Source of the DNA: Methanobacteriota archaeon | GTDB taxonomy: Archaea; Thermoplasmatota; Poseidoniia; Poseidoniales; Poseidoniaceae | Length of the DNA stretch: 64,000 bases | Reading direction: 5' to 3' | Assembly: GCA_002726495.1 (NCBI GenBank) | Contig: PBTH01000062.1 | Span: forward strand, 9,239-73,238 | Shown here: one piece after another, positions 37,081-54,100 of the stretch | How the letters are laid out: every line of letters starts with the position of its first letter | Position numbering within the stretch: the stretch's first letter is position 1 | Translations under genes and position numbers: made by a program | Notes under the pieces: generated by a model | Seen by the model: only the letters and a program-made list of their open reading frames with translations | The model's database searches: none | Told to the model about the DNA's origin: nothing

Positions 37081-38079
37081 TCATCGGCGACGGATGGGTC
37101 CAAGTCGTTGCATGTTCTTCTTTTTTGATGAACTGTTGTTACGAGATGAGGAGGCTGTATCGCTCTTACCAAGCCCACCGAACATAAGTTCACCATCTTT
37201 GAGCAAAGATTGAACCAAACTTTCGGCAACTTCATCCGATTCAGCACCTGTCTTCATCTCAGCCTTAACCGCATTGTTGTGGTCAGACATCCATGATTTA
37301 CGCTCTTCAACAGCCAAATTGAGTTGTTCCCTTGCTTTGTTAACATCCACCATAAGTTCCTCAATCTTAGCGTGAATGTTGTTCGCCTTTTCGTGAGATT
37401 CTACAGATTCGAGGTGATGACGGTCTCCTTCAGCTTTGAGAAAATTGCGATGATCAAGACCTTCTTTATACTCAGCCCACTTTTCATCAGCACGCTTGAG
37501 AGCTTCTACAAACATCTTGTGTGCATCATCAGCTTCGGATTTGAGTGTACTGATTGCCTCATCAAGGTTTGAGAGGTCAACACTGACCATTTCAAACTTG
37601 ACGACTTCAGGCTCAAGCTCTCCTACACGACGCTTCATTCTCTTGATTCTCTCCATCGTTTCCTTCTCTTTTTTAGTGCTTGAGGAGGTCGTTTGGAATT
37701 TATCTTCAAGAGTCTTAATTTCATTCATCAGATGGGAAAATTCTGCTGTTGCAGATTTCTTTTCTCCTTTTTCATTCCGACGACCTTTGGCTTGACCGAT
37801 GAGTTCACGAAGTTGGGCTTGAATGGTGTCACGCTTTGCTTTGTGAAGATTGCGCTCCCCATGTATGGCGTCAAGCTCAGCCTTCATGAGGTCAAGTTTT
37901 TTCTTATGTTCACGATATTGTTCCTGAACTGCATTTCGCTTTTGAGCGATCGCTTTTCCCTGTTCGCGATAAGAATTTCTATTCTCACGCATCTTTCGAA
38001 CCTTACTCTCCATTGATTGGAGTTGTTCACGAAGTTCCGAATCAGGGTTGTTCTTAGCCTCATCTCTCTGGCCGCGCAT
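37081..38079 (-). CDS. coiled-coil protein (COG1340-like archaeal coiled-coil family)
   Basis: 332 aa, highly charged (K/E/R), heptad-like throughout. Paralogous in style to 46490..47365. Confidence 0.55.
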   Translation of the reverse strand: MRGQRDEAKNNPDSELREQLQSMESKVRKMRENRNSYREQGKAIAQKRNAVQEQYREHKKKLDLMKAELDAIHGERNLHKAKRDTIQAQLRELIGQAKGRRNEKGEKKSATAEFSHLMNEIKTLEDKFQTTSSSTKKEKETMERIKRMKRRVGELEPEVVKFEMVSVDLSNLDEAISTLKSEADDAHKMFVEALKRADEKWAEYKEGLDHRNFLKAEGDRHHLESVESHEKANNIHAKIEELMVDVNKAREQLNLAVEERKSWMSDHNNAVKAEMKTGAESDEVAESLVQSLLKDGELMFGGLGKSDTASSSRNNSSSKKKNMQRLGPIRRR

Positions 38080-38138: not shown

Positions 38139-39674
38139 CTACAATGAGCCGCCGAAGATGTTGTAAATCATCAGCAAAAATGAAGCAGACAAGCCAATTC
38201 CACCAAAAATATATGCAACAAAAGACCCTGTTGTTCGTAGCCATTGGCGGAATTCAGAACGAACTCGGACATTGATTTGACGGCCAAGCAATAATTCCCC
38301 ATTTGTTTCCTCAAGACGAACTGAGACCGTTGCATCGCCATGGGTGATTGGAATCAGTGTCTGCCAGGAAACAGTGCTGTCTTTTAGGAGGCCAGACATC
38401 TTCCCTAGAACATCCTCGTTTCCCTTGGCTGCAAGCGGAAGTGCTTCGTTTGACCACCAGTATTTCTGGCCAGGTTCAAGCCGATATGTGAGTGCGAGGT
38501 CCTTTGGTTGGAAATTCGGTGTTTGAATCCGGAATACCACCGTTCGCGTCTCCTTAGAAAGATTGTGAAACAATGTAAACAAGTTCGCTTTATCAGTCAC
38601 TACATTTTCCATATCAACTTCAAAGATTAAATCATCCATGGCGGGAGAACGACCGGATTCAAGATCTTGCTTCAAACGGTCAACCATTCTAAAGAAGGCG
38701 GGGCATGTTTGAGAAATGATTCCAATGAGTACAAGCCACACCTCAAGCGTGAACACCTCATGTGAAAATACAAAATCCATGCCATTCTTGTTTAGAATTT
38801 CGGCTAATTCCGATTCCAACGTCTTCCGGTCAAGACCGGTTGCATGGCGATAAATGGTCATAAGGAATTTTTCATGAGCAAAATGTGAGTCGATTGTTTT
38901 CTTAAATCCGGATTCTAATTCCTTAAGATAATCATCGTACTGAGACCTTAGGAGAGGGTCCATATGGGTTTTAAGAAGGTCATTGAAGACCATGTTCAAC
39001 GTCGATGGATGCACCGGTGGTGAATAGGCAGACAAAAGCCCCGTTCTGTCAACCATATTAAACGGAGTAGAGCGAGTAGGCAGATGCTGCCCTACAGAGA
39101 GAATCAAGAAAGAAGAAGATGCCAACAAGAATAATTTACCAAGAACAGAATCGGTTTCCAAATAAAGTACTATGAGCAACATGAAAGCCGACGATACTGC
39201 AAAGATCAACGACCTCGTATGGTGTGTCATCGAACTTTCAAGTTGGAACAGAAGCCCATCATAGCCATGAAGCGATTGAACCGAACGATGCTCATTGTTC
39301 GATGCTTCGACTTGTTTATGGAATTCAATAAGAGAGATCCCTACTCTGTATCGGTGAAAGCCGACTGCAAGAATGAAACCAAGTACTACCACGAATGACA
39401 AACTCGCCATAGCTGTGGAGAAACTCAAGCCCACATTGGGTTCAATATTTTTGGCCCACCACGAAGGGGAATCTTGAGAAAAGGCCCACGTAGCGAAATA
39501 TGTGAAGGCAGCAAATGCTGGAAGGAACATAATCAGTCGGAGTCCGGAACTGACGATTTGCCGGTCAATAGCATGGATAATTGATTCAGAAGGACGGAAC
39601 CCAAATCGGCTCTTTGATTCACTAGAGTCTTCTGGCTCCGAGGAGGAATCCAAGACTTCATCTACCTCTGCCAT
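38139..39674 (-). CDS. hypothetical membrane protein
   Basis: Acidic N-terminus, about 4-5 TM helices in the first 210 aa, a soluble middle domain and a C-terminal TM. No motif. Confidence 0.55.
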   Translation of the reverse strand: MAEVDEVLDSSSEPEDSSESKSRFGFRPSESIIHAIDRQIVSSGLRLIMFLPAFAAFTYFATWAFSQDSPSWWAKNIEPNVGLSFSTAMASLSFVVVLGFILAVGFHRYRVGISLIEFHKQVEASNNEHRSVQSLHGYDGLLFQLESSMTHHTRSLIFAVSSAFMLLIVLYLETDSVLGKLFLLASSSFLILSVGQHLPTRSTPFNMVDRTGLLSAYSPPVHPSTLNMVFNDLLKTHMDPLLRSQYDDYLKELESGFKKTIDSHFAHEKFLMTIYRHATGLDRKTLESELAEILNKNGMDFVFSHEVFTLEVWLVLIGIISQTCPAFFRMVDRLKQDLESGRSPAMDDLIFEVDMENVVTDKANLFTLFHNLSKETRTVVFRIQTPNFQPKDLALTYRLEPGQKYWWSNEALPLAAKGNEDVLGKMSGLLKDSTVSWQTLIPITHGDATVSVRLEETNGELLLGRQINVRVRSEFRQWLRTTGSFVAYIFGGIGLSASFLLMIYNIFGGSL

Positions 39675-40396: not shown

Positions 40397-42913
40397 CTAC
40401 CCATCCTCTGCCTTGAAAACTTTACTACAAGCGGGACATCTCACCGAACCGCCATAAGACTCTGGAATTCGAAGTGTTTGAGAGCAATCTGGACAGGATA
40501 TCTCAATTTTTCCATCCTTAGATTTCTTTGACTCTGATGAAGTTTGAGCTTCGGTTGTTGAAGTTGAATCCGGTTCTTCTTGCTCGGGGACTTGAGCCTC
40601 AACCTCAAATTTAGTTGAGCAATCTGGACAGCCAACTGAACCCGAATAATCGGATGGAACTCGAAGCCTTCGGTCACACTCAGGACATTGTACCTCAATC
40701 TTCTCTTGACTGGGGGAGGAAGAGGCTTTCTTACGTGGCGAAGATGGTTTTTGGACGCTTGACGAACCTTCAACACGATTCATGCGAATACGCAACACAA
40801 GTGATACGACTAAACCTCCAACCAGACCCCATATGATGGCACCTACTGGCATTGATTCGGATTCGCCCTCCAAAGGCTCGCCTGAAACATAGGATTCTTG
40901 GTCTGAAACCATGGTCCCATCGATCGACCAAACCGCTTGAATCACAACATTGGAACCTTTAGGCCATACCAAATCCATTTCTACGCTAAGGGACTGAGAT
41001 GAGCCCCAACTTGGCGATGCAGTCGATGAAAGAATCTCATCGTATTCATTCTTCAGGATGAGGTTGCCAACACTCGTTGAAATCGGACCGGACTGATGAA
41101 GTGTCAATTTGATGGTAGCTGTATCACCTTGTGCAGGTAAAATAGGCTGGGGAATGTCCTCCATTTCGACCCAATATACCGTTCTCTCTTCAGGAACATT
41201 GACAGATACTGATAGCGCACCTGGCCCAATTGACCAATCTTCCGCTGATATCTTCAAAACTATTTTTTCAGCATTAACTTGTCCAAATGACATTTGTTCA
41301 GTATGGATGCCCTGCTCAAGAAATTTGACATATTCAAAGAGGTACACCGTTGTATCGGATGTTTCATACCCTAATTGAACCAAAACATCTCGAGGTTTGC
41401 CTTCGTCCAATTCATAAACGACCTCAAAAGATAATCCTGAATCTTGGGACCATACGACTTCATTGATAGTCAATCCAATTGATTGTTGTTCCATAACGGG
41501 CAAGGTGAAATTCCCCGCATTGACACCATCAATACTACCATCATCACTCTCGAGGGCCCATTCAAGCACATGTTCACCAGAATCAATGAAAAGGAAACTC
41601 GATGAAACTTCTCCGGCCTCACCGGATTTTAAGATGAGCCAATCACCCACTGACGGTTGGCTTGTGAGGTCTGATTGGTCAACAAGAACCATTCGTACCC
41701 TGCCTTCAAGGTCGCCAACATTACGAATCAGCATGTTTGCCCTCAATGAATCTCCCAGATGCCATGGACCTCCAGTTAAGGAGGGCGTTACTGAACCTGC
41801 GGAGGCAAAGGAGGCTGATTCCATATTGGCTGTGATGAGGATCGGAAGTGTCGATTGGGCCCCGATTCGGCCCTCTGAAAGACTGCAGTTAACGGTCACA
41901 GGTTTCGCAGTCATTGAAAATTCCCATGTGAAATTAGAACCAGCTGGTATGGCTTCAGTAGTTGTCAGTAAAACTTCATTTTGAGTGTTGCATTCGATGA
42001 TTCCGTTAAAATCAACAGTTCCATTGTTTGACACATTGAGGTGGAATACCAATAACTCACCAGCTACAATTGATTCTGAATTTGAAATTAAAGAAGTCAT
42101 AAGTTCAGGCAAAGGTGGGGCAAGGACAGACAATGTTCCGTTTCTCGAGTGCTGTCCGTTATTCTCTCCAAGCGTTCCATTAAGTTCATACGACCAGTTC
42201 ATCAAACCTTCCACGGCAGAAAAAGAGGTGGTGATGCTGGCATAAACGGACGACATGGCCTCTACAGAAAAATCCTCAAGAACAATTGATTCATTGTAAG
42301 GGCCGTTTTCAATCTCTACATTGATTGAGCCCGTCCAGTTGACATCCCCTTGATTTGAAACAGGCAGTTGAAGTTGGACATAATCTCCATCGTGAATCGA
42401 AAGATTACCCGTGATGGCCCCCAATGAATCAACACCCTGGGAGAGGATGCTACCTGCGGCCCCGAGTTCCAAAGAAAGGGGTCTTAATCTCTGGATGGTT
42501 CTAGAAAGGGAAAGTAAATGAGTTCCTGATTCAATTCCAACTTCACCTAAAAGTTCAACGTGTATTTCGCTAAATCCATAATCCAGTGAAGTCAAATTGA
42601 CCGTCACATTCCTTTGTTCGAGCGAACTCAGATTAAACATCTGAGATGGGAGTTGTTGAAGAACAACACCTTCAAGTGATTTGACGGACACATTCAGTTC
42701 AACATTAGCGTAACTTCCATCGGTTTCATGAAGTTCCAAAGTGAACGAATAATTTTCAGTTGAAAAGGTATCGTAATCGTAAATTCCAAAACTAACTTCG
42801 TCGATGACTCCTGAGCCATTCGTGGCATGAACAGAGGGCACTAATGACAGAAGAAGGAGCGTGACGAGGACGGCGGGAATCCGACTCCGAAATGCGCCGT
42901 TACCTCCGCCCAT
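40397..42913 (-). CDS. large surface protein with signal peptide, C-terminal TM anchor and cytoplasmic tail carrying two MJ0042-type zinc ribbons
   Basis: N-terminal signal (AVLVTLLLLSLVPSVHA), long beta-rich ectodomain, TM (AIIWGLVGGLVVSLVL), then the tail modules VQCPECDRRLRVPSDYSGSVGCPDCSTKFEV and ISCPDCSQTLRIPESYGGSVRCPACSKVFKA (CPxC...15...CPxC each). Confidence 0.8.
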   Translation of the reverse strand: MGGGNGAFRSRIPAVLVTLLLLSLVPSVHATNGSGVIDEVSFGIYDYDTFSTENYSFTLELHETDGSYANVELNVSVKSLEGVVLQQLPSQMFNLSSLEQRNVTVNLTSLDYGFSEIHVELLGEVGIESGTHLLSLSRTIQRLRPLSLELGAAGSILSQGVDSLGAITGNLSIHDGDYVQLQLPVSNQGDVNWTGSINVEIENGPYNESIVLEDFSVEAMSSVYASITTSFSAVEGLMNWSYELNGTLGENNGQHSRNGTLSVLAPPLPELMTSLISNSESIVAGELLVFHLNVSNNGTVDFNGIIECNTQNEVLLTTTEAIPAGSNFTWEFSMTAKPVTVNCSLSEGRIGAQSTLPILITANMESASFASAGSVTPSLTGGPWHLGDSLRANMLIRNVGDLEGRVRMVLVDQSDLTSQPSVGDWLILKSGEAGEVSSSFLFIDSGEHVLEWALESDDGSIDGVNAGNFTLPVMEQQSIGLTINEVVWSQDSGLSFEVVYELDEGKPRDVLVQLGYETSDTTVYLFEYVKFLEQGIHTEQMSFGQVNAEKIVLKISAEDWSIGPGALSVSVNVPEERTVYWVEMEDIPQPILPAQGDTATIKLTLHQSGPISTSVGNLILKNEYDEILSSTASPSWGSSQSLSVEMDLVWPKGSNVVIQAVWSIDGTMVSDQESYVSGEPLEGESESMPVGAIIWGLVGGLVVSLVLRIRMNRVEGSSSVQKPSSPRKKASSSPSQEKIEVQCPECDRRLRVPSDYSGSVGCPDCSTKFEVEAQVPEQEEPDSTSTTEAQTSSESKKSKDGKIEISCPDCSQTLRIPESYGGSVRCPACSKVFKAEDG

Positions 42914-43004
42914 GGTGCTTGTTGTTTGAAGGGGTTCTTCACCTTCACGCTGAAAGAAGTTGTGAGGGCATGTTTATTCAACATTGAACTGCCCCCCGTA
43001 ATCA

Positions 43005-43520
43005 ATGCAGGACGAACGTTTGTTGGAAGTGAGTCCCGAATTCTTGGTTCGGGCCATTCTTCATCGCCGTCAACGGCTTGCAGAAATGATTCCAAAACAG
43101 CTTGAATCTCGCAAAGATGAGAAGGAAATTGCAGAGGCATTGGCAAGAGATGCTAAACAACGTAGAGACGAGATCAAAACAAACCTGGACGAATTCTCTA
43201 AACAACTGAAAAAACTCGACGAGGGCAGCCCCCAACACGAAAAAATGCTTGTTGAGCGGGATACATTCATTCAGGAGGCTCAAAAATCCGAGCATGAGTA
43301 TCTAGAAAATGAACTCTTCAGAAGAAGGAGCGATTCCAGAACCAAGCGACTCACACATGCACTGAACGATTGTGAACGTTCGATTGAATACTGGGAAGGA
43401 GTGCTTGATAATGGATTTGAAGAGCTCCTTGTCGATGCTACACGGGTCAAACAAGGAGGACCCTCAAGTTATGCTCTATCAAAAGGAGCAAAACCTGAAA
43501 GGAGGTTGAAAAATGAGTGA
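43005..43520 (+). CDS. hypothetical coiled-coil protein
   Basis: 171 aa, charged and helical. Its stop overlaps the next gene's start by 8 nt (operon). Confidence 0.5.
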   Translation: MQDERLLEVSPEFLVRAILHRRQRLAEMIPKQLESRKDEKEIAEALARDAKQRRDEIKTNLDEFSKQLKKLDEGSPQHEKMLVERDTFIQEAQKSEHEYLENELFRRRSDSRTKRLTHALNDCERSIEYWEGVLDNGFEELLVDATRVKQGGPSSYALSKGAKPERRLKNE

Positions 43521-45534
43521 GAAACCATGCCCTCACACAGGCTTTTCATCATCCCAACAAAAGCAGTGGCCACTTCTTCATTCCCAATTGCTGGGAACTC
43601 TTGAACTTGAAGGAATAGAATCCATTTCAGAATCATATCTGAAACAACTCTCCGAAGAGATTTCCTCTACGATTCAGAATTCCGCAATGAGCAGGGAAGA
43701 AACAAAGGCCCGTGAGCGAATCTATCAACATCTCAAACACAATATTGAACACAAACTTGCAGGCAGTAAACTCCACGCCTTTGGCTCAACTCAGTCTCAA
43801 ACCTCATTGGGTGTCGGAGATCTTGACCTTTGTCTTGTTGTTAATGGCCCATCTCCAAGAAAAATCCTCAACAAAATACGAAACATTTTGACCGAACTTG
43901 AAATGAATGAAATTGAGGTTATTGGCCGTGCGAAAGTACCCATTATCAAATTCAAAGAACCCGAAACCGGACTGCCTATCGACATCTCTGTCAACAATGA
44001 GCTTGCACTTTACAATACTGAACTTATTCGGTCATATGCAGATACTCATCCGATGGTCCGCAATGCTGTTCTAACCGTGAAATTCTGGGCATCTTCTCGC
44101 GGTATCAATCAGGCCTTTATGGGGACCTTGTCTTCATATGCATGGACGCTGATGGCATTGGCTGCCATGCAATTGGATCCAAAGGTCCAACTGCCAAACC
44201 TGCAAAAAAACGCTGACAAAAACATCATCCGTTTGGACGAAGAATACGATGTAGGATACAATTCAGAATCCAATTTTGAATGGAATCCTGAACTGGACCT
44301 GGCCACATCTTTTGTCGCTTTTATTCACCGATTTGTATTTGATTGGCCATTTGAAGAAGATGTTATCTCAATACGCAACGGCGGAACGCTCTCTCGCAAA
44401 GATAAGAATTGGAATCAAGGTGAGCCAGAAGCATTTGATCTGCTTCCAGACTCTCTTGACCGAAGACTTGGCCTGCATTCCATGCCGATTGAAGACCCAT
44501 TTTCACTCAACCATGATTTAGGCCGTGTATTGAGGCCGTCAGGCTATCTCACAATTAGAGAAGAATTCCTCAAGGCATGGCTCGGTTTGCTAAAATCCGA
44601 ACCGTGGTCAGAACTTTCCAAAAAGGAGAATGTAAGTGTAATCGAAGAATTTGATTTGTTTGAAGACTTACGACCACGAGCAATGGATGAAGTCCATGCG
44701 CTGCATCAAGAAGTACTTGACAATCTTTCCCGAGTTGAGGAAGAAGGGAGAACCTTTAGCGCACAACGTAAATCCATCAGTCAAGCCATTCAGTTTGCCT
44801 TGGGCAAGAGGGATACTCCACCTCAAGGTTCAATCGGCCCAGAAGATGACCGCTCTGAAGAAATCAATGATTCTAAATCACAACTGGACGATTTGACCTC
44901 CCAAAGGGATGAATTGGTAGGCAACATTGTCATCTCATCTCCAAAGATATCCGAAACACTTCGACAAACATTTGATCGGATTACGGAACAATTGGATGTG
45001 ATGAACATCCCTTCATTGGAACGTGAACAAGAGCTTGCATCCCTCTTTTTAGAACTTCAAAGCATGCATCCAATCGGTAAAGAAGTTGACCGATTGAATC
45101 GAGAAATCCATCTCATAAAGAAGCCACTTCATGGCAACATCAAACACCTCAACAAAGCCGAAAAGAAAATGAAACGTTCACTGCGAACCAATAAGAAAGA
45201 AGCCAAAAAATTACGTCGTGAAAAAGGCCGCCTTGAATCGTGGATTCGTATCAAAAATGGACCGAAAAAACCACGAAAAAACGACAGGCAGCGTGGAAGA
45301 AAACATCGGGGACCAAAACCAAGTGATGTCAAAAAGAAAATGGATTCTGGTGAATCGCTTTCTATGGAAGATCTCAGTGCGTTATTACAGCATGGAGGTG
45401 TCCTCAATATGGACGCAAAGAACGGTAACTCTCGCCAGGGTAAGCGGAAAAATAAGGGCAAAAACAACTCTTCTAATCACCAAGTCAAGCGTGGTAAGCG
45501 AGGAAAAGGCAAGCACAATCAACGAAGGGATTGA
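43513..45534 (+). CDS. Cid1/GLD-2/Trf4-family nucleotidyltransferase (non-canonical poly(A) polymerase / terminal uridylyltransferase-like) with PAP-associated domain and basic C-terminal tail
   Basis: Pol-beta NTase catalytic motif LHAFGSTQSQTSLGVGDLDLCLVV (GS...DxD) with the third Asp in IDISV. PAP-associated-domain hallmarks: AKVPIIKF...GLPIDISVNNELALYNTELIRSYADTHPMVRNAVLTVKFWASSRGIN...GTLSSYAWTLMALAAMQ and IEDPFSLNHDLGRVL. The C-terminal roughly 150 aa are Lys/Arg-rich (KKPRKNDRQRGRKHRGPKP...KRGKRGKGKHNQRRD). Confidence 0.75.
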   Translation: MSEKPCPHTGFSSSQQKQWPLLHSQLLGTLELEGIESISESYLKQLSEEISSTIQNSAMSREETKARERIYQHLKHNIEHKLAGSKLHAFGSTQSQTSLGVGDLDLCLVVNGPSPRKILNKIRNILTELEMNEIEVIGRAKVPIIKFKEPETGLPIDISVNNELALYNTELIRSYADTHPMVRNAVLTVKFWASSRGINQAFMGTLSSYAWTLMALAAMQLDPKVQLPNLQKNADKNIIRLDEEYDVGYNSESNFEWNPELDLATSFVAFIHRFVFDWPFEEDVISIRNGGTLSRKDKNWNQGEPEAFDLLPDSLDRRLGLHSMPIEDPFSLNHDLGRVLRPSGYLTIREEFLKAWLGLLKSEPWSELSKKENVSVIEEFDLFEDLRPRAMDEVHALHQEVLDNLSRVEEEGRTFSAQRKSISQAIQFALGKRDTPPQGSIGPEDDRSEEINDSKSQLDDLTSQRDELVGNIVISSPKISETLRQTFDRITEQLDVMNIPSLEREQELASLFLELQSMHPIGKEVDRLNREIHLIKKPLHGNIKHLNKAEKKMKRSLRTNKKEAKKLRREKGRLESWIRIKNGPKKPRKNDRQRGRKHRGPKPSDVKKKMDSGESLSMEDLSALLQHGGVLNMDAKNGNSRQGKRKNKGKNNSSNHQVKRGKRGKGKHNQRRD

Positions 45535-46028
45535 GGTATTTGAAATCGGTCATCTGGCAGCAAGGTATTGAACCAAAAAACATGACATATGCTGCTTGTA
45601 ATCAAGTGCTTACATTGTTTTTTGACGAGACCGGTGAACGTTATACTGAGACCTCAGTTCGCCACCTACCTATTCCCAATTGGAGTGGAAACTTAATTCT
45701 CACAAATCCTTCAGGTGACGACCCCACAAAAATCCTCGGCGTACTGTGGGCAACACCCTTCAAGGATGACATCGTACGCGTGGCTGCTTTCGTTATTCAC
45801 TCCGAGTTCCAAGGCGTTGGCCTGGGAAGTTTGGCTTGGAACCGGTTTGTTGAGGCTGCATTGGATGCGGGTTATCGCCGTGTACAATTGGAAGTAATGG
45901 CTAGCAATATTGACGCTCAACGATTCTATCAGCGTAGGGGCATGGCGGTTGAAAAGCATCTTGAAGGCTACTACAAGTCTGGATTGGGCTACATGATGCG
46001 TGGACCACTACAATCTGTTAATGAATAA
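45531..46028 (+). CDS. GNAT-family N-acetyltransferase
   Basis: Acetyl-CoA binding motif A (VIHSEFQGVGLGSLA) and motif B (RRVQLEVMASNIDAQRFYQRRG). Start overlaps the stop of the preceding gene (ATGA). Confidence 0.7.
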   Translation: MRYLKSVIWQQGIEPKNMTYAACNQVLTLFFDETGERYTETSVRHLPIPNWSGNLILTNPSGDDPTKILGVLWATPFKDDIVRVAAFVIHSEFQGVGLGSLAWNRFVEAALDAGYRRVQLEVMASNIDAQRFYQRRGMAVEKHLEGYYKSGLGYMMRGPLQSVNE

Positions 46029-46065
46029 CTGAAAGTATTATTTTCCCGCCGCCTAAAGACGCTCC

Positions 46066-46383
46066 ATGCTCGAACGAACGATGGCTCCTCTGGTCAAGAT
46101 CCCCGGAGTCCGAAGTGTCGCATTGTTTGAAGGAGATGGATTTGTCATCTACCGCTCCCATGAGGATGCAACAAATCACGACAACCAAATGGGCCATTGG
46201 ACCACTTCATTGGAGGCATCGGCTCACTCAGAGCAACTTACCTTTATTCTTGAAGACGGAACGGTGATGTTGCGAAGAGGGAAACGGCTCAATATGACCG
46301 TTCACTGTGCGCCCAACACAAATCTTGGCGAGGTCCGTAAAACACTGGAATCCTGTCATAATCTTCTTCACAATTTGAACTAG
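46066..46383 (+). CDS. Roadblock/LC7 (MglB-like) domain protein
   Basis: 105 aa with the pattern KIPGVRSVALFEGDGFVI...LTFILEDGTVMLRR..RLNMTVHC, consistent with the Roadblock/LC7 alpha-beta-alpha sandwich. The call is made on length and pattern only. Confidence 0.45.
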   Translation: MLERTMAPLVKIPGVRSVALFEGDGFVIYRSHEDATNHDNQMGHWTTSLEASAHSEQLTFILEDGTVMLRRGKRLNMTVHCAPNTNLGEVRKTLESCHNLLHNLN

Positions 46384-46489
46384 TCCGCACATCATCTGCG
46401 TGTACGAGCCCATGAAGGGTTAAATGGGGGAGCAAGGTCCCCGTGGATGCGGGAAGATGGGAATCTTCTCCGACCAGGTGAGATGAACA

Positions 46490-47365
46490 ATGGCAGAACT
46501 CAAAGATCTTCTGAATGAGCGAAGGAAAATGGTTGACGAAAAAGCCACGCATCACCGCGAAATTCGAGACGATTGGAATGAGAAAACCAAGGATTTCACC
46601 TCAACCCGTAATGAGCTCAACAACGAAGTTCGTGAATTGATTGTACAAGTTCGTGAACAACGTGAATTGCGCGATAACATGAACGAAATGGTTCGTGAAA
46701 AGAAAAAAGAGCGTGAAGAAGCAAACCAAATGGTTCGTGAGGCAAAGGAAACCATCCGTGGAAAGCAGCCAGACACGCCACCTCAACTTGACAAGCGCGG
46801 ACGACCGATCCGTCCGGACACCGTTCAATCATTGACACGAACCATGGAACGACTCGAGCGAGAGTTTGAGCAAGGAAAACACCAAGGAAAGAATGAGGTC
46901 AAGTACTTCAAAAAGATGAAGGAACTCAGTGCCAAGCGAAGAAAACTAAAGGACGCACAAACTGCTAGCGGGGAAACTGAAGGCAACGAATCCTTGCGAG
47001 AGGCTATGGCAAAGCAAGACGCTGCTCACAATTCAGTCAAGGAGGCTGCTGAGGCTGCTCAAAGCGCCCACGATTTGATGATTGAATGGAATTCAGAAGT
47101 TGACCGTCAACGAGAAAAGGCTGAAGCTGCTCACCGACGACTGCGAACTTCCAAAAAGGAAGCCGACAAGGAACACAGCCTCTACATTGTATCCCTACGA
47201 TGCTTGCACTCCATCCAAGACATCTTGCGTGCCATGCGTGGAGCAAGCGCCGGCCAAGGCCAACGCCCAACTGCAAACAATGAAACTCAGGATTTGATGG
47301 CGAAACTACTCTCTGGTGAAACGCTTTCGACAGAAGAATTGATGCAACTTCAGCGCTTTGATTGA
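46490..47365 (+). CDS. coiled-coil protein (COG1340-like), paralog of 37081..38079
   Basis: 291 aa, K/E/R-rich heptad repeats, with a C-terminal Gln/Ala tail. Confidence 0.55.
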   Translation: MAELKDLLNERRKMVDEKATHHREIRDDWNEKTKDFTSTRNELNNEVRELIVQVREQRELRDNMNEMVREKKKEREEANQMVREAKETIRGKQPDTPPQLDKRGRPIRPDTVQSLTRTMERLEREFEQGKHQGKNEVKYFKKMKELSAKRRKLKDAQTASGETEGNESLREAMAKQDAAHNSVKEAAEAAQSAHDLMIEWNSEVDRQREKAEAAHRRLRTSKKEADKEHSLYIVSLRCLHSIQDILRAMRGASAGQGQRPTANNETQDLMAKLLSGETLSTEELMQLQRFD

Positions 47366-47430
47366 AGAATGAAACGGGGAACACCTCAAAGACCCCCGTT
47401 CACAGCAATCAAACTAGCAAGGTGAGCCTG

Positions 47431-48588
47431 ATGATTCAGAACGACGAAATTGCTAGCATCGTAGAGGAGTATGACCGACTCAAGTTGAGAATCGGAATGA
47501 CTGCATCGCACTCTGCATTGGATATTTGCGATGGAGCCATTGAAGAGGGGTTTCCTACCGTTGCATATTGTAAAGAAGGGCGCCATAAAACCTATGCGAA
47601 CTACTTCAAGACTCACAGGAGTTCTTCGGGAAGAGTTGTTCGTGGGATGGTTGACAAGGCCATTGTTCTTGATGACTTCAACGACGTCATGAAGCCAGAG
47701 ATGCAGGCTGAGATGCGTAAGAGAAACGTGATATACATCCCAAATCGCTCGTTTACATCCTACTCGAAAATATCAGATATTGAAGAAGACTTCAGAGTCC
47801 CTATGTTCGGTTCAAGAAACATGCTTCGGATGGAAGAGCGTACTGAAGAGCAGGATTACTATTGGATCTTGGAAAAGGCGGGACTTCCCTATCCTGAAGC
47901 CATCGCATCACCCGAGGACATTGATTGCTTGGTGATTGTCAAACTCCACCATGCTCAAAAGAAATTAGAGCGTGGATTTTTCACGTGCGCATCTCATCAA
48001 GAATATCAAGAGAAATCTGCGGCCCTGCTTGCAGAAGGAGTCATTGACCAAGAGTCTCTTGATGGCGCTCGCATTGAACGCTATGTCATTGGGCCTGTAT
48101 TCAATCTCAATTTCTTTTACAGCCCACTTGCTGAAGAGGGTGAGCGATTGGAACTGCTTGGAGTTGATTGGCGGTTTGAATCATCATTGGACGGCCATGT
48201 CCGGCTTCCTGCTCCTCAACAAATGACCATGCCATTGCATCAACAAATACCGGAGATGACCGTTGTAGGACACAATACTGCTACAATTCGTGAATCGTTA
48301 TTGGAGAAAGCATTCGAACTTGGCGAGAAATTCATTGAAGCCAGTAAGGAACATTACCATCCTGGAATTATCGGCCCATTCTGTCTCCAAACTTGCATTG
48401 ACAAGGATATGAATTACTACATTTATGATGTAGCCCCACGTTTAGGTGGAGGTACCAATGTCCATGTAAGCGTCGGCCATCCCTATGGGAATGCAACATG
48501 GAGGAAACCAATGTCAAGCGGACGACGTATTGCCATGGAATTACGAATGGCCGCGGAACAAGACCGTTTGTTGGAAGTCCTCACGTGA
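47431..48588 (+). CDS. purP: 5-formaminoimidazole-4-carboxamide ribonucleotide (FAICAR) synthetase, archaeal ATP-grasp PurP
   Basis: IGMTASHSALDICDGAIEEGFPTVAYC...IVLDDFNDV...VIYIPNRSF..Y...PMFGSRNMLRMEER matches the PurP N-terminal and ATP-grasp pattern. The start at 47431 is preceded by GGTGAG. Confidence 0.8.
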   Translation: MIQNDEIASIVEEYDRLKLRIGMTASHSALDICDGAIEEGFPTVAYCKEGRHKTYANYFKTHRSSSGRVVRGMVDKAIVLDDFNDVMKPEMQAEMRKRNVIYIPNRSFTSYSKISDIEEDFRVPMFGSRNMLRMEERTEEQDYYWILEKAGLPYPEAIASPEDIDCLVIVKLHHAQKKLERGFFTCASHQEYQEKSAALLAEGVIDQESLDGARIERYVIGPVFNLNFFYSPLAEEGERLELLGVDWRFESSLDGHVRLPAPQQMTMPLHQQIPEMTVVGHNTATIRESLLEKAFELGEKFIEASKEHYHPGIIGPFCLQTCIDKDMNYYIYDVAPRLGGGTNVHVSVGHPYGNATWRKPMSSGRRIAMELRMAAEQDRLLEVLT

Positions 48589-50490: not shown

Positions 50491-51111
50491 TTACCAAAAG
50501 GTATTATTTTCATTTGATCCCTCGTCCTTAGGTATTGATTGAACACCCTCTGAGTCCAATGAATCCAGCGGAACCAATTGATTTTGAACATCCAAATTAA
50601 GAATCCTTTCAACATCATGGCCACGGTTATTGAACAGGAAACGATTGATTTTTGAAGCAATAACCTCAAGTCGTCGGCGTCCAAAGATTGAAACGAATTC
50701 GAATGGTTCTCCCGTCTTGAACACAAGTTTGAGTTCCTCAACGGTATGAACTTGTCCACTTTCGCTGTCAACATACTCCCTGGTTATGAATTTCGCAGCT
50801 CGCATCTCAGACACACGTCCCGCTTCTACCCAAGACAAGGACAACAGCAAAAACGTCTGATGATACCTAAAGAGGTCCGTTTTCGCGTTAAAGTGATATG
50901 TCTTACCAGTGCTTAGGATTGTTATGAGAAAAAATAGAACTCCAATAAGTTGTGTTTGAAAGGCTTCAAAGGGGTGCGAAAAGGCAAACATTACAAACAA
51001 AAAACTGAATGCGAAACCGGATAATGTTTTTCGCGTGGTATCCCAAACAAAACCAAGATACAATTCATCTGAACCCGCAGCATCCACCACATCTTCGACG
51101 GGAACGGTCAT
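50491..51111 (-). CDS. hypothetical membrane protein with possible bacterial-PH (DUF304-like) domain
   Basis: Two TM helices (LSGFAFSFLFVMFAF; LIGVLFFLITIL) followed by an approximately 110 aa soluble domain. This topology is typical of membrane-flanked PH-like proteins. Confidence 0.45.
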   Translation of the reverse strand: MTVPVEDVVDAAGSDELYLGFVWDTTRKTLSGFAFSFLFVMFAFSHPFEAFQTQLIGVLFFLITILSTGKTYHFNAKTDLFRYHQTFLLLSLSWVEAGRVSEMRAAKFITREYVDSESGQVHTVEELKLVFKTGEPFEFVSIFGRRRLEVIASKINRFLFNNRGHDVERILNLDVQNQLVPLDSLDSEGVQSIPKDEGSNENNTFW

Positions 51112-51120
51112 GAAATTCCC

Positions 51121-54100
51121 TCACGATTGGAAGGGAAGCCATTCTTGAGAAGCAGCATCAAAGTACGAAAGATTGCCTTCGGCATCACGGGACCAATGTA
51201 CACCGTTCTCTTCCCATTGTTCTACATTTGATTCAATGGAAGGGAGGGCTTTGTCTTCGCTTGCTGCATATTGCTCGGATGCAGCATCGGTCGTCACGTT
51301 GGAATCGAACATTGTGCTTGTATCGTCCGGTTTACGCATGAACATGAAGCCAGCGCCACCTGCAAGAGCGAGTACCAAGAGTGTGATGATTCCATAGAGC
51401 ATTCCGTTGCCGGAATCTGCGACCTCGGTAACCGAGCGAGTTGCATCTTCAGGGTAAGCATCCAGACGGTCTGCAACACCGTCTCCATCGGTATCCAGAG
51501 ATTCGTTAGCATTGAATTTGAAATCGTCCTCTGCGTCACTTACTCCATCACCATCAGAATCCAACTGCAGTAATGCACAGCCATTGGCATCAATGAGTTC
51601 GCCTGCGGGGGTGTTCGGGCAATTGTCAAGATGGTTTTTGATACCGTCTTCATCATCGTCTTTTTGTTGCTCAGCACACCCGTCAAGGTCCACTGGTTGC
51701 GTGATTGGTGTGTCGGGGCATTGGTCCACATTGTTCATGATATCATCCAAATCTTCGTCCTTTTGAGAGTCAGAACAACCATCGCTATCCGGTTGTTCAC
51801 CCGCAGGGGTAACCGGACATACATCACTGGCATCAGAAATTCCGTCATTATCAGCGTCCAACTGGTTGGTTGCGCAACCAAGGAGGTTGACACTCAATCC
51901 ATTTCCAGTACCCGGGCAATTATCAACATCATCAGCAACTGTATCTCCATCCGTATCCTTCTGAGATGGGGCGCAGCCTTGAGCATCTGCAACCTCATTG
52001 GTTGGAGTTGAATCACAAATATCGCTTGCGTCAACAACGTTGTCTCCATCGGTATCTCTCTCATTTGCAGCACAGCCAACGCCGTTAACCGGCAAACCTG
52101 CGGTGGTGGTTGGGCAAAGATCTCTGTCGTCGGTAATGTCGTCGTCATCGGTATCGAGTTGACTGAGGGCGCATCCTGCTGCATCAACGGTTAGCCCAAG
52201 AGGCGTATTTGGACATGCATCAAATGCATTCATGACCATGTCGCTATCGCTGTCCTCTTGACTTGAGGAGCAACCTACATTGTCAACTTGTTCTCCAGCT
52301 GGCGTTCCTGGGCAAGCATCACTTGCGTCGTTAACTCCATCCATATCGCCATCGAGTTGAGATGCAGCACAGCCGTTTGAATCAACAGATTGGCCGGCTG
52401 GTGTACCGAGACATTGGTCCCCGTTGACACCACTGGCATTGTCGCCGTATCCGTCATTATCTTGGTCGGCCCACTGAGTCGGGTCATTCGGGAACGCATC
52501 GCCATTCAAACCGGCTGCATTATCACCGTAACTATCGCCATCCGAATCACTCCATTGGGTTGAGTCCAATGGGAAGGCGTCGGGGTTGTTACCTGCTTGA
52601 TTGTCACCAAATCCATCTCCATCTTCATCAAACCATTGCGTGTTATCACTTGGGAATTGATCTCCATTGTTTCCATTTGGATTGTCACCGTAGCCATCAC
52701 CATCTGCGTCTTCCCACTGAGTTGAGTCGCTTGGGAAAGCGTCGGGTGTTGTTCCTGATGGATTATCACCATAACCATCACCATCTGCATCGGACCATTG
52801 TGTAGAATCACTTGGGAAAGCGTCGCCGTTAGTCCCCGAGGGGTTGTCGCCATACCCGTCTCCATCGGAGTCTTCCCATTGGGTTGAATCCGCTGGCCAT
52901 GCATCGGGGTAGTTACCTGTGGCATTGTCCCCATAACCATCACCGTCTGAGTCTGACCATTGGGTTGAATCGGTAGGGAATGCATCAGGATAGTTGCCCG
53001 TTGCGTTATCTCCATATCCATCACCGTCTACATCGGACCATTGAGTTGAGTCGTTAGGGAAAGCATCAGGGGAGTTTCCACTTGCATTGTCCCCATACCC
53101 GTCTCCATCCATGTCTGAATACTGAGTGGAATCATAGGGGAATGCGTCGATGTTGTCGTTGTATCCATCGTTATCACTGTCTTTTTGATCCAATGCACAG
53201 CCGGACAAGTCAACCGTTGCTCCGGGGGTTGTATTGGGACACAGGTCCAATTCATTCGCAACACCATCGCCGTCATCGTCGATGGAAAGAACGAAACAAT
53301 CTGAATCTCCGATGAGTTGAACATTCACGGCCGAGTAGAGGTCAGCAAAGACACAGTAGGTACCTGATGAGGATGGTGTGGTGTAATTGAAGTAGGGCAA
53401 GGACATGTTTTGTGCAGTAGCAGTTACAGAAGTTAACGTTGAAAGCGCTATGTTCGCGCCCGATGAATCCTCAACCCGATATTGATATTTGTAACTGTCA
53501 CCTGTTACCAAATCTAAGCCTTCAGCCCTAACGTTATTGGTTGAAGCAGTGGAACTTGCAGAATAGGAATTGATCACCAATGCTGGCAGCTGAGGGATGA
53601 ATTCAACAAAATGGTCACCGGTGATATTGTCACTGGTGTCAATGTTAACTACAGAATTATTGAGAGAGAGTTCAACATAGAACATGTGGTCATTCATGGT
53701 CGTTGGTCCAGCCCAAGTGATTTGATGGCTTATCGATGAATTAACTGGAGTAAAGGTCCAAGTGTCTGAATCGATCATTGAAGCGTTGATGGCTGTGTTT
53801 GTATCGTTTGAGACAGTGAAATTATTAAACAACTCTTGATAATCCAAGGTAATCCAACGCAATGAATAATCTGTTCCTATGGAAAGATTGGTCAAGAAAA
53901 TATCACCAGTTGTTGAGGATGTCGCTGATGCTTCAACCATCTCAAGGTACACTTCACCCATGCCGCTATTCAAGGCCATTCCTGAAGCATCGCTTAGGGT
54001 TGATGAAACCATGAGGTCGGATTCGGCCAATGTCGTTTGAATTGAAATGTTCACCGAATGTGTGGTATTGGTTGCGTTGAATGTACCGTTTGAGGAGGCA

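Follow-up and report, generated by a model that had tools for sequence, protein, structure and literature searches.

A cluster in the window, that is, the whole 64,000-nt stretch of archaeal DNA analysed, is interpreted here with moderate confidence as a module for RNA 3'-end tailing that is specific to the Poseidoniales lineage and vertically inherited, and in which a uridylating nucleotidyltransferase (NTase) would act on a coiled-coil scaffold. The host is a Poseidonia-like archaeon of Marine Group II (MGII). Such an RNA 3'-end tailing complex would probably be of a kind undescribed in prokaryotes. The cluster comprises gene 1, coding for a coiled-coil protein (43,005-43,520), the NTase gene (673 aa; 43,513-45,534), gene 3, coding for a GNAT acetyltransferase (45,531-46,028), gene 4, coding for a Roadblock/LC7-fold protein of 105 aa (46,066-46,383), and gene 5, DUF7121a (46,490-47,365). 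All five ORFs were present on the plus strand at the coordinates given in an earlier note, which had described them as one co-transcribed, possibly defence-like cluster of an undescribed type. The five family assignments, the conserved gene order, the Cid1-like NTase and the undescribed combination of that reading were borne out, the last being absent from any described system that could be searched, whereas the single five-gene transcript and the defence reading were not.

Residues 1-380 of the NTase (43,513-44,652, plus strand) were assigned by Pfam and PDB matches to a Cid1/URT1/TUT4-7-type catalytic and central (PAP-associated) module. The Cid1-like assignment was confirmed by MTPAP-like_central (1.5e-27) and PAP_assoc (2.1e-7), both above the curated Pfam cut-offs. 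In the PDB comparison, residues 60-355 aligned with URT1 (9.2e-40), TUT7 (7.2e-37) and Cid1 (3e-28). TUT4 and CutA were also among the matches, and the TUTases ranked above Gld2 (5e-22) and Trf4 (4e-17). Among 86 relatives, G91, S92, D103, D105 and D157 were invariant, and the catalytic module is complete, with an intact active site. Additionally, His334, which aligns with the His of the URT1 motif IEDPFETSHDLGR, was kept in 78 of the 86 sequences and substituted, mostly by Arg, in eight. This URT1 motif is the counterpart of Cid1 H336, a UTP-selectivity determinant (PMC4931116). Because the UTP-selecting His is kept, the enzyme most likely adds uridines. An SD-like box precedes the NTase gene in 59 of 78 loci, compared with 5% of random positions.

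An NTase that is active but not an RNA uridylyltransferase appears unlikely. It might synthesize poly(A) or mixed tails, nucleotidylate another acceptor such as a protein or small molecule, or produce a signalling oligonucleotide in the manner of cGAS, OAS and CD-NTases. Adenylyl- and C/U-adding enzymes also belong to the Cid1 family, in which specificity has switched repeatedly (PMC4931116); CutA among the PDB matches, the eight sequences missing the His and a weak NCBIfam match to a CBASS cyclase (E 0.0046) point in the same direction. However, the His is kept in most sequences, and genuine TUTases head the list of matches, above Gld2, Trf4 and MTPAP. The cyclase match reached only 16.6 bits against a cut-off of 200, PADLOC gave nothing beyond weak coiled-coil noise, and no effector-like partner is present.

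All-against-all HMMER comparison yielded 13 archaeal-type NTase clusters with scores from 643 to 201 bits, followed by scores of at most 154 bits. Ten of the latter matches were looked up, and all six with a name were eukaryotic. The nearest relatives beyond Poseidoniales, among those found and named, were all eukaryotic, and of the prokaryote species genomes scanned, only those of Poseidoniales had this NTase type. A search of viral contigs revealed no relatives. The earlier note had overlooked the eukaryotic TUTases as the closest relatives of this protein beyond Poseidoniales.

The remaining residues 381-673 of the NTase (44,653-45,534, plus strand) correspond, by hhalign and composition, to a DUF7121-like coiled-coil arm with an SG-x-LS-x-DL-x-LL motif and a Lys/Arg-rich tail. 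The best profile match of the arm was DUF7121b, a further paralogue (hhalign 92.7% over 277 columns; reversed controls 0.4%). The motif was found in 38 of 76 NTase C-terminal halves, in 66 of 71 DUF7121a sequences and in none of the controls, and the tail (residues 561-673) contains 34% K+R and has a pI of 11.5. Gene 1 (43,005-43,520, plus strand; 171 aa) encodes a shortened DUF7121-type paralogue, whose family matched DUF7121a (hhalign 94.9%) and DUF7121b (93.4%), with reversed-sequence controls at 1.7% or less. Its longer orthologues match Pfam DUF7121, and it has an internal deletion relative to forms of roughly 260-310 aa in other clades. Both the coiled coil within the NTase and the identity of gene 1 as a DUF7121 paralogue had escaped the earlier reader.

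Gene 5, DUF7121a (46,490-47,365, plus strand), was indeed a COG1340-like coiled coil (Pfam DUF7121, 3.9e-18), with a score of 66 bits (cut-off 29). It evolves slowly (53-87% identity across the order), and its C-terminal motif is SGETLSTEELMQLQRFD. In the AF2 model (pLDDT 83; helices 2-92 and 163-257), antiparallel helices form a hairpin that has an insert at its apex, and Foldseek retrieved only generic coiled coils with this model. DUF7121b (37,081-38,079, minus strand), previously pointed out as a paralogue in the other, divergent operon, was supported by a precomputed Pfam DUF7121 assignment and by hhalign (96.4% against DUF7121a); direct hmmscan listed nothing for it. In every locus that extends far enough, DUF7121b lies at the same position. 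According to these profile comparisons, the four coiled-coil modules (gene 1, the NTase C-terminal half, DUF7121a and DUF7121b) are homologous.

The GNAT assignment of gene 3 was upheld by Pfam (Acetyltransf_1, 4.8e-13), and the acetyl-CoA motif QGVGLG is visible in the sequence. Its matches to rimI TIGR01575 (1.4e-11, under the cut-off) and Thermoplasma Ard1 4pv6 (1.2e-6) place it as a relative of Ard1/RimI-type protein N-terminal acetyltransferases, and it could be the cell's general N-terminal acetyltransferase. For gene 4, the window protein was under the Robl_LC7 cut-off (E 0.018), yet 10 of 30 family members matched (best 2.8e-5), in agreement with the earlier Roadblock/LC7 assignment; MAPKK1_Int and LAMTOR5 also matched the family. 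The low-confidence AF2 model (pLDDT 62) gave top Foldseek matches that were nearly all Roadblock-fold, with E values of at least 0.08. Gene 4 evolves fast, with a median identity of 22% within the order, and a small plus-strand ORF follows the GNAT gene in 66 of the 71 loci with both flanking genes. An SD-like box precedes gene 4 in only 1 of 66 loci, and the GNAT gene likewise lacks one. Because of an A/T-rich box about 26 nt upstream of gene 4 in the window, transcription may also start internally at this gene.

The 91-nt divergent intergenic region contains a TTTATT box (42,973-42,978, plus strand) about 30 nt before the ATG of gene 1, and most Poseidoniales loci have GTTTATT or CTTTAT at this distance. 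It is a candidate archaeal TATA element of the coiled-coil-NTase-GNAT unit. A conserved BRE/TATA-like box, GAAGGGTTAAATGGG (46,414-46,428, plus strand), lies 62-76 nt before DUF7121a; it was seen as TTAAAT, TTATAT or TTCAAAT in nearly all loci and is a putative promoter element for this gene. The DUF7121a leader contains a small hairpin (46,451-46,470, plus strand; stem 46,454-46,458 with 46,463-46,467, loop GGGA), followed on its 3' side by an SD-like AGGTGA (46,477-46,482, plus strand). The paired columns of the stem covary (GC/AU, GC/UA, AU/CG/GC and UA/CG), with a score of 0.265 compared with at most 0.137 for slid partners, and none of 500 shuffles reached this score. RNAalifold on the raw leader alignment gave no structure, and no Rfam match to the leader was obtained. 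Moreover, a KaiC-like gene on the opposite strand lies between the upstream genes and DUF7121a in about 20 loci. DUF7121a is probably a separate transcription unit; since it has its own box, structured leader and SD, and an opposite-strand gene can intervene, the single transcript proposed for all five genes is unlikely.

The 8-nt overlap of gene 1 and the NTase gene (43,513/43,520) is real and has an AGGAGG box before it, and the gaps of 37 nt and 106 nt were correct. The second overlap, previously read as ATGA, proved to be TTGA, the longest ORF beginning with TTG; the GNAT start is uncertain (TTG 45,531 or TTG 45,540), and metagenome gene callers place it 6 nt past the NTase stop. A sixth gene on the same strand, PurP, lies 3' of DUF7121a. 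Its 4-nt overlap at 47,362 was rejected as a longest-ORF artefact, the conserved start being ATG 47,431, preceded by AAGGTGA. Because gaps of 10-60 nt are usual in this compact genome and overlaps occur occasionally, overlaps alone are weak evidence. The cluster overlaps are kept across the order Poseidoniales: of 77 loci, 61 have a gene 1/NTase junction of -4 nt, and in 76 the NTase and GNAT genes overlap or are at most 5 nt apart. Only coiled-coil, NTase and GNAT genes, in this order, are truly coupled.

The neighbourhood analysis suggested earlier retrieved 80 Poseidoniales loci (GTDB species loci; NTase identity about 31-33%), and the cluster order was identical in every one of them. The genes were neither reordered nor dispersed as unrelated housekeeping families, yet this order is uninformative here and weak evidence of functional linkage, because a wider 11-gene block, including PurP, a DtxR-type repressor and a sugar nucleotidyltransferase (NTP_transferase), is equally syntenic. 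Frozen synteny without common function is a doubtful but serious alternative, in which the NTase would work alone, the GNAT would be a general NAT, the Roadblock and DUF7121 proteins would have separate roles, and the adjacent DUF7121 paralogues would be a mere footprint of tandem duplication. The unrelated genes ordered alike in all loci, the short gaps usual in the window, the promoter-like box of DUF7121a and its separation by an inserted gene, and the generic Ard1/RimI NATs among the best GNAT matches are consistent with it. It is opposed by the 4-nt gene 1/NTase overlap and the NTase/GNAT junction, both kept despite about 30-40% protein identity, and by the coiled-coil module that the NTase has in common with its upstream neighbour, which is difficult to account for if the two neither interact nor have a function in common. 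The elevated evolutionary rate common to the four upstream genes (22-43% identity, against 59% for DUF7121a and 86% for PurP) also argues against it and fits a co-evolving accessory module.

Fast evolution of these four genes would also fit an anti-virus defence or conflict system, and NTase-fold enzymes and coiled-coil (SMC-like) proteins are known in defence systems. We nevertheless regard the defence-like function suggested earlier as very improbable. PADLOC gave no matches except weak coiled-coil noise (E values of at least 2.5e-4), viral contigs held no relatives, and the GC content is that of the surroundings. The locus is fixed, vertically inherited and single-copy, with the same core context (the 11-gene block) in all 80 species loci, and neither flanking mobile elements nor presence/absence variation was seen among the loci retrieved. 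The cluster resembles neither a mobile nor a defence system.

In the tailing module that we favour, the catalytic subunit would be a eukaryote-type Cid1/URT1/TUT4-7 terminal nucleotidyltransferase, most likely uridine-adding, joined to an antiparallel coiled-coil arm of the archaeal DUF7121/COG1340 type, with a highly basic tail at its end. The translationally coupled gene 1 product would pair with this arm, and the tail would provide the RNA binding missing from Cid1-type catalytic modules. The GNAT and Roadblock/LC7 proteins may be co-expressed accessory or regulatory subunits. DUF7121a, which evolves slowly, would be the parent of these paralogues, with its own promoter and structured leader, tied to the module through ancestry (tandem duplication) and possibly coiled-coil interaction, not through co-transcription. 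Here we infer that RNA is the substrate, that the enzyme is specific for U and that a complex forms, as well as whatever role the GNAT or Roadblock protein may have.

Compared with known systems, the archaeal NTase has the same two-lobed module as the eukaryotic TUTases (Arabidopsis URT1, human TUT4/TUT7 and S. pombe Cid1): a palm into which a PAP/OAS1-type central domain is inserted (residues 60-355, about 30-35% identity), the GS / DxD / D catalytic residues and the IEDPF..(H)DLGR motif with the UTP-selecting His. Unlike the TUTases, its host is an archaeal order and its activity is predicted from sequence; its catalytic module is at the extreme N-terminus, has neither zinc knuckles nor intrinsically disordered N-terminal regions, and is followed by the DUF7121/COG1340 coiled coil and basic tail. 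Its operon also codes for a coiled-coil paralogue, a GNAT and a Roadblock protein. DUF7121a clearly belongs to the archaeal COG1340/DUF7121 coiled-coil family, which has no known function, and profile comparison relates gene 1, DUF7121b and the C-terminal half of the NTase to it; no fusion of a DUF7121 module with an enzyme turned up in the searchable literature. Gene 4 resembles the Roadblock/LC7 platforms (MglB, LAMTOR and Asgard Roadblock) in size, alpha-beta-beta-alpha-beta-beta-beta-alpha order, top fold matches and signature GV.SVAL.D.DGF ... NLG..R. In contrast to these GTPase-regulatory platforms, it has no small GTPase partner among the flanking ORFs scanned against Pfam, and its window protein is under the Pfam cut-off. 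Gld2 (with GLD-3/RNP-8) and Trf4 (with Air2/Mtr4, in TRAMP) are non-canonical poly(A) polymerases that depend on cofactors: their catalytic modules are without their own RNA-binding domain, and partner proteins recruit the substrate. The similarity of the NTase to them is weaker than to the TUTases, the UTP-selecting His missing there is present in the NTase, and the partner proteins are unrelated in sequence and fold. By analogy with Gld2 and Trf4, the coiled-coil partner and basic tail of the NTase could act in substrate recruitment.

The second open reading frame of the cluster, here called NTase (43513-45534, + strand, 673 aa), matched the Pfam profiles MTPAP-like_central (1.5e-27; 96.8 bits against a cut-off of 27), PAP_assoc (2.1e-7; 31.5 bits against 22.6) and TUTase (2.5e-6). 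It carries two sequence hallmarks of the Cid1 family, namely, a Pol-beta-type palm with hG[GS] and three carboxylates (DxD ... D), and a PAP/OAS1 substrate-binding central domain after the palm. Specifically, FGS lies at residues 90-92, and G91, S92, D103, D105 and D157 were invariant among 86 Poseidoniales NTase sequences. Residues 60-355 aligned end to end with catalytic modules of solved structure. The best matches were Arabidopsis URT1 (9e-40), human TUT7 (7e-37), TUT4, S. pombe Cid1 (3e-28) and CutA, in that order, followed by Gld2 (5e-22), Trf4 (4e-17), trypanosome TUTases, Star-PAP and mitochondrial PAP; the alignments to the URT1 and Cid1 structures extended through residue 355. By its sequence, the protein thus passes as a Cid1/TUTase family member with putative activity.

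Within IEDPFSLNHDLGR (IEDPF..NHDLGR) sits His334, which is aligned to the histidine of IEDPFETSHDLGR in URT1 and is kept in 78 of the 86 Poseidoniales relatives. It corresponds to the UTP-over-ATP histidine of the Cid1 family, its equivalence to Cid1 H336 being one of motif and not of residue-level alignment to Cid1. H336 of Cid1 excludes ATP, and the same residue put into Gld2 switches Gld2 to UTP (PMC4931116). Considering His334, the intact active site and this precedent, we predict that NTase is an active uridylyltransferase. A nucleotidyltransferase with a different nucleotide or acceptor specificity is an unlikely alternative beside a histidine retained so widely.

Profile-profile comparison, with profiles built from 80 loci and reversed-sequence controls that keep composition and heptad periodicity, revealed the nature of the rest of the protein. 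NTase residues 381-673 (NTase-C) were homologous to DUF7121b (37081-38079, − strand), the paralogue of the fifth cluster gene (92.7% over 277 columns). Gene 1 (cc; 43005-43520, + strand, 171 aa) was homologous to both DUF7121a, the fifth gene itself (46490-47365, + strand, 291 aa; 94.9%), and DUF7121b (93.4%), and the latter two were homologous to each other (96.4%). Unrelated neighbours scored 0.1-0.7% and reversed sequences at most 1.7%. The homology was visible only by this controlled comparison; pairwise BLAST of the coiled-coil proteins against one another gave no significant match. The motif SG-x-x-L-S/T-x-x-E/D-L-x-x-L was found near the C-terminus of NTase-C (38 of 76 sequences) and DUF7121a (66 of 71) and in none of four control families. 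Lys and Arg together make up 34% of the final 113 NTase residues, a stretch with a pI of 11.5. Residues 381-673 are more than a mere 'tail'.

DUF7121a passed the gathering score of Pfam PF23435 (3.9e-18; 66.3 bits against a cut-off of 29), and gene 1, NTase-C and DUF7121b were tied to DUF7121 by profile comparison and by precomputed Pfam matches in orthologues. DUF7121b is assigned to DUF7121 in precomputed Pfam, and a fresh hmmscan at E<=0.01 gave it no family, which is probably an effect of the composition/bias filter on a coiled-coil sequence. The AF2 model of DUF7121a (pLDDT 83) shows two antiparallel helices of ~90 residues, with an insert at the apex and two short helices at the C-terminus. 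A fold search with this model returned generic coiled coils only (SMC arms and SH3BP5, E>=0.008), and a profile search returned Poseidoniales orthologues only, among the 120 matches listed. In the genus Poseidonia, gene 1 is internally shortened; other clades have forms of 260-310 aa. The copy in the window is without ~100 internal residues present in L004:7138-8004, L045:7153-7998 and other loci, and the deletions in L005 and L080 are different and shorter. Coiled-coil length is evolutionarily plastic, and such an internal deletion could be tolerable for a hairpin-shaped coiled coil. The published description of COG1340/DUF7121 goes no further than a coiled-coil family that is conserved in archaea and has no known function (PMC1322226), and literature searches found no functional work on it.

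The earlier note had treated the five genes as one co-transcribed cluster, and its description of the junctions was largely borne out. The 8-nt overlap of gene 1 and NTase is correct and is preceded by AGGAGG, and the following gaps of 37 and 106 nt are both right. The NTase/GNAT overlap was read as ATGA; the actual letters are TTGA, with TTG as the start codon, and gene callers on identical metagenome contigs place the GNAT start 6 nt past the NTase stop. A sixth gene on the same strand, purP (PurP, formate-dependent FAICAR synthase), follows DUF7121a. Its conserved start is ATG 47431 behind AAGGTGA (window 47362-47431). Its longest ORF begins at TTG 47362 and overlaps the stop of DUF7121a, but this codon is probably a false start; the 65-nt spacer before PurP contains a conserved CAAAGACCCC motif. 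The GC content of the cluster is uniform with its surroundings. The AT skew over 42001-48000 is strongly positive (0.12-0.20; ~0 elsewhere in the window), which is probably explained by Lys/Glu/Arg-rich coiled-coil coding sequence. TARA and other marine metagenomes contain contigs identical or near-identical to the window (ERZ976263 and TARA_SAMEA2623135 are identical), and the closest named homologues belong to Candidatus Poseidonia alphae (71% identity), which assigns the window to a Poseidonia-like archaeon of Marine Group II.

The gene order predicted to be conserved across Poseidoniales was found in every locus long enough to show it: NTP-transferase, DUF7121b, a 511-aa protein, a DtxR-like repressor and an 838-aa membrane protein on one strand, and divergent from them cc, NTase, GNAT, the small gene, DUF7121a and PurP. 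This order does not discriminate between readings, because unrelated neighbours are conserved equally well, and frozen synteny of independently acting genes is the main rival explanation, though we consider it rather unlikely. The junctions are more informative. The cc-NTase junction was −4 nt in 61 of 77 loci, and NTase and GNAT overlapped or lay within 5 nt in 76 of 77. The GNAT-small gap was 71 nt at most, the small-DUF7121a gap 51-899 nt (median 106) and the DUF7121a-PurP gap 28-108 nt. An SD-like box precedes NTase in 59 of 78 loci (5% at random positions), the pattern expected of an internal cistron, and precedes the small gene in 1 of 66; simple counts of SD and TATA boxes cannot be trusted for gene 1, GNAT and DUF7121a, whose start codons are not fixed by the alignments. 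Evolutionary rates also separate the parts of the cluster, with median identities to the window in distant loci of 22% (small), 33% (NTase), 39% (cc), 43% (GNAT), 59% (DUF7121a) and 86% (PurP).

On the divergent side, the 511-aa protein (38139-39674, − strand) adjoins DUF7121b, has no Pfam match and keeps its position across the order. A 206-aa protein (50491-51111, − strand) adjoining a transglutaminase-like gene likewise lacks a Pfam match and keeps its position. The 838-aa predicted surface/membrane protein (40397-42913, − strand) carries two C-terminal zinc-ribbon modules (Zn_ribbon_4/5, ~2e-8). In the divergent intergenic region (42914-43004) and its orthologues, GGGGTTCTTCACCTTCAC is conserved across the order upstream of a TTTATT box, and several clades have the perfect palindrome CACCCACCCT(N)AGGGTGGGT instead or in addition. 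Since the divergent operon includes, two genes away, the gene of a DtxR-family repressor, this motif or palindrome may be the operator of that protein.

For the fifth gene, the sequence argues against the claim of a single transcript. In the region 46414-46489 (same position in L003-L088), a promoter-like box, GAAGGGTTAAATGGG, precedes DUF7121a and is kept in nearly all lineages; TTAAAT stands at 46420-46425. Downstream of the box come a short 5'-leader hairpin, whose stem covaries and whose loop is GGGA (GNRA-type), and after it an SD-like AGGTG. The covariation score of the hairpin, obtained by pair counting on one structure named by the analyst, was 0.265, compared with at most 0.137 for slid partners, and was reached by none of 500 shuffles. 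RNAalifold on the raw MAFFT alignment of this leader returned no structure, so the hairpin is kept as a side observation; no known structured RNA was matched in the cluster (Rfam, E<=1). The hairpin could be a translational operator or a stabiliser of the highly conserved coiled-coil gene. In ~20 loci of one Poseidoniales clade, an opposite-strand gene for a KaiC-like ATPase (Pfam PF06745, 230-250 aa) lies between the small gene and DUF7121a (L008:10910-11620, − strand; likewise L023, L024, L027, L030, L032-L043, L048, L051, L075 and L077). Because of the promoter-like box, the structured leader and this insertion, DUF7121a is most likely its own transcription unit. The framing of a 'five-gene system' is too broad.

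The third gene, GNAT (45531-46028, + strand, 165 aa), matched Acetyltransf_1 (Pfam, 4.8e-13), and the Q/RxxGxG/A acetyl-CoA-binding motif of the GNAT fold reads QGVGLG in its translation. It missed the curated RimI threshold (TIGR01575, 44.7 bits against a cut-off of 86.4), and its match to Thermoplasma Ard1 (1.2e-6 over 85 residues) falls short of clear orthology. GNAT is thus related to the Ard1/RimI N-terminal acetyltransferases and is classed as neither RimI nor Ard1. The small protein (46066-46383, + strand, 105 aa) alone scored under the Robl_LC7 cut-off (15.2 bits against 23), and 10 of 30 orthologues matched this profile (best 2.8e-5), with others matching the MAPKK1_Int (MP1) and LAMTOR5 profiles of the same fold. 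Because the homologue search gave three close relatives only, its AF2 model is shallow and of low confidence (pLDDT 62), with the order of secondary structure right for Roadblock. The Foldseek list for this pLDDT-62 model consisted mostly of MP1/p14, LAMTOR, Asgard Roadblock and MglB/MglC, none significant (E>=0.08). A Pfam scan of most of the larger ORFs at ~34.6-51.1 kb, with 51121-55185 and the smaller ORFs outside it, found no small GTPase partner (MglA/Rag-like); such partners may be encoded elsewhere.

When a single genome was scanned for each GTDB species, 102 relatives were found, and the 80 loci that were retained all belong to Poseidoniales. Two of these carry a Thalassarchaeaceae label, and three sit on contigs assigned to bacterial MAGs. 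Those three (L037, L047 and L087) are unmistakably archaeal but were deposited under Rhodobiaceae, Salipiger bermudensis and Salinimicrobium sp., probably because public bacterial MAGs were contaminated during binning. An exhaustive search by HMMER, seeded with the catalytic module, returned 13 archaeal-type clusters (643 to 201 bits) with the domain N-terminal, after which the scores fall to at most 154 bits and the domain is mostly interior or C-terminal. Ten of these lower-scoring proteins were looked up, and the six with names were all eukaryotic (plant URT1-like, fungal and the holozoan protist Pigoraptor). The simplest reading would be a single ancient acquisition from eukaryotic TUTases or an ancestry in common with them, after which the enzyme was joined to a coiled-coil module already present; transfer may have run in either direction.

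A defence-like system had also been suggested. PADLOC gave no match for NTase, GNAT, the small protein or DUF7121a and nothing meaningful overall, and a CBASS cyclase match to NTase reached 16.6 bits against a cut-off of 200. The locus occupies a fixed core position in 80 species, not a variable, island-like one, and no relatives were found in viral contigs. A defence system was therefore rejected as highly improbable.

We propose an RNA 3'-tailing complex as the product of the coupled core, which comprises cc, NTase, GNAT and, probably, the Roadblock-like protein; we regard the chances of this reading as evenly balanced. The Cid1-type module would add U, and the DUF7121 arm of NTase would pair with the co-translated DUF7121 paralogue. 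Eukaryotic relatives need separate RNA-binding cofactors, as in Gld2/GLD-3, TRAMP and Lin28/TUT4; by analogy, the basic tail of NTase might bind RNA in their place. For GNAT and the Roadblock-fold protein, our guess is an accessory or regulatory role. DUF7121a and DUF7121b would be the slowly evolving parents of the coiled-coil modules and may still interact with the complex.

Poseidoniales belong to the most abundant archaea in surface seawater, and the uridylation of RNA 3' ends by Cid1-type TUTases is regarded as eukaryotic. In the literature that could be searched, no paper combined Poseidoniales or Marine Group II with terms for uridylation or TUTases, and none dealt with a Cid1-type enzyme in archaea. 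More tentatively, and less likely than not, these archaea might run uridylation-based RNA tailing or surveillance. Their TUTase, which eukaryotes would share or have supplied, would have been refitted to an archaeal COG1340 scaffold and would work in a complex that also contains a coiled-coil paralogue, an acetyltransferase and a Roadblock-fold protein. If true, prokaryotes would have their first Cid1-type RNA uridylation system, and the archaea-wide COG1340/DUF7121 family a first clue to its function. A catalytically intact, order-wide archaeal TUTase would raise the question of U-tailing in archaeal RNA decay, would clearly exemplify gene flow, or else common ancestry, between eukaryotes and a non-Asgard archaeal lineage, and would link this conserved, function-less coiled-coil family to RNA metabolism. 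The enzyme-plus-scaffold module is real and surprising. Compared with every characterised Cid1/TUTase member, NTase differs in its lineage, the N-terminal placement of its catalytic domain, its coiled-coil fusion and its operon partners.
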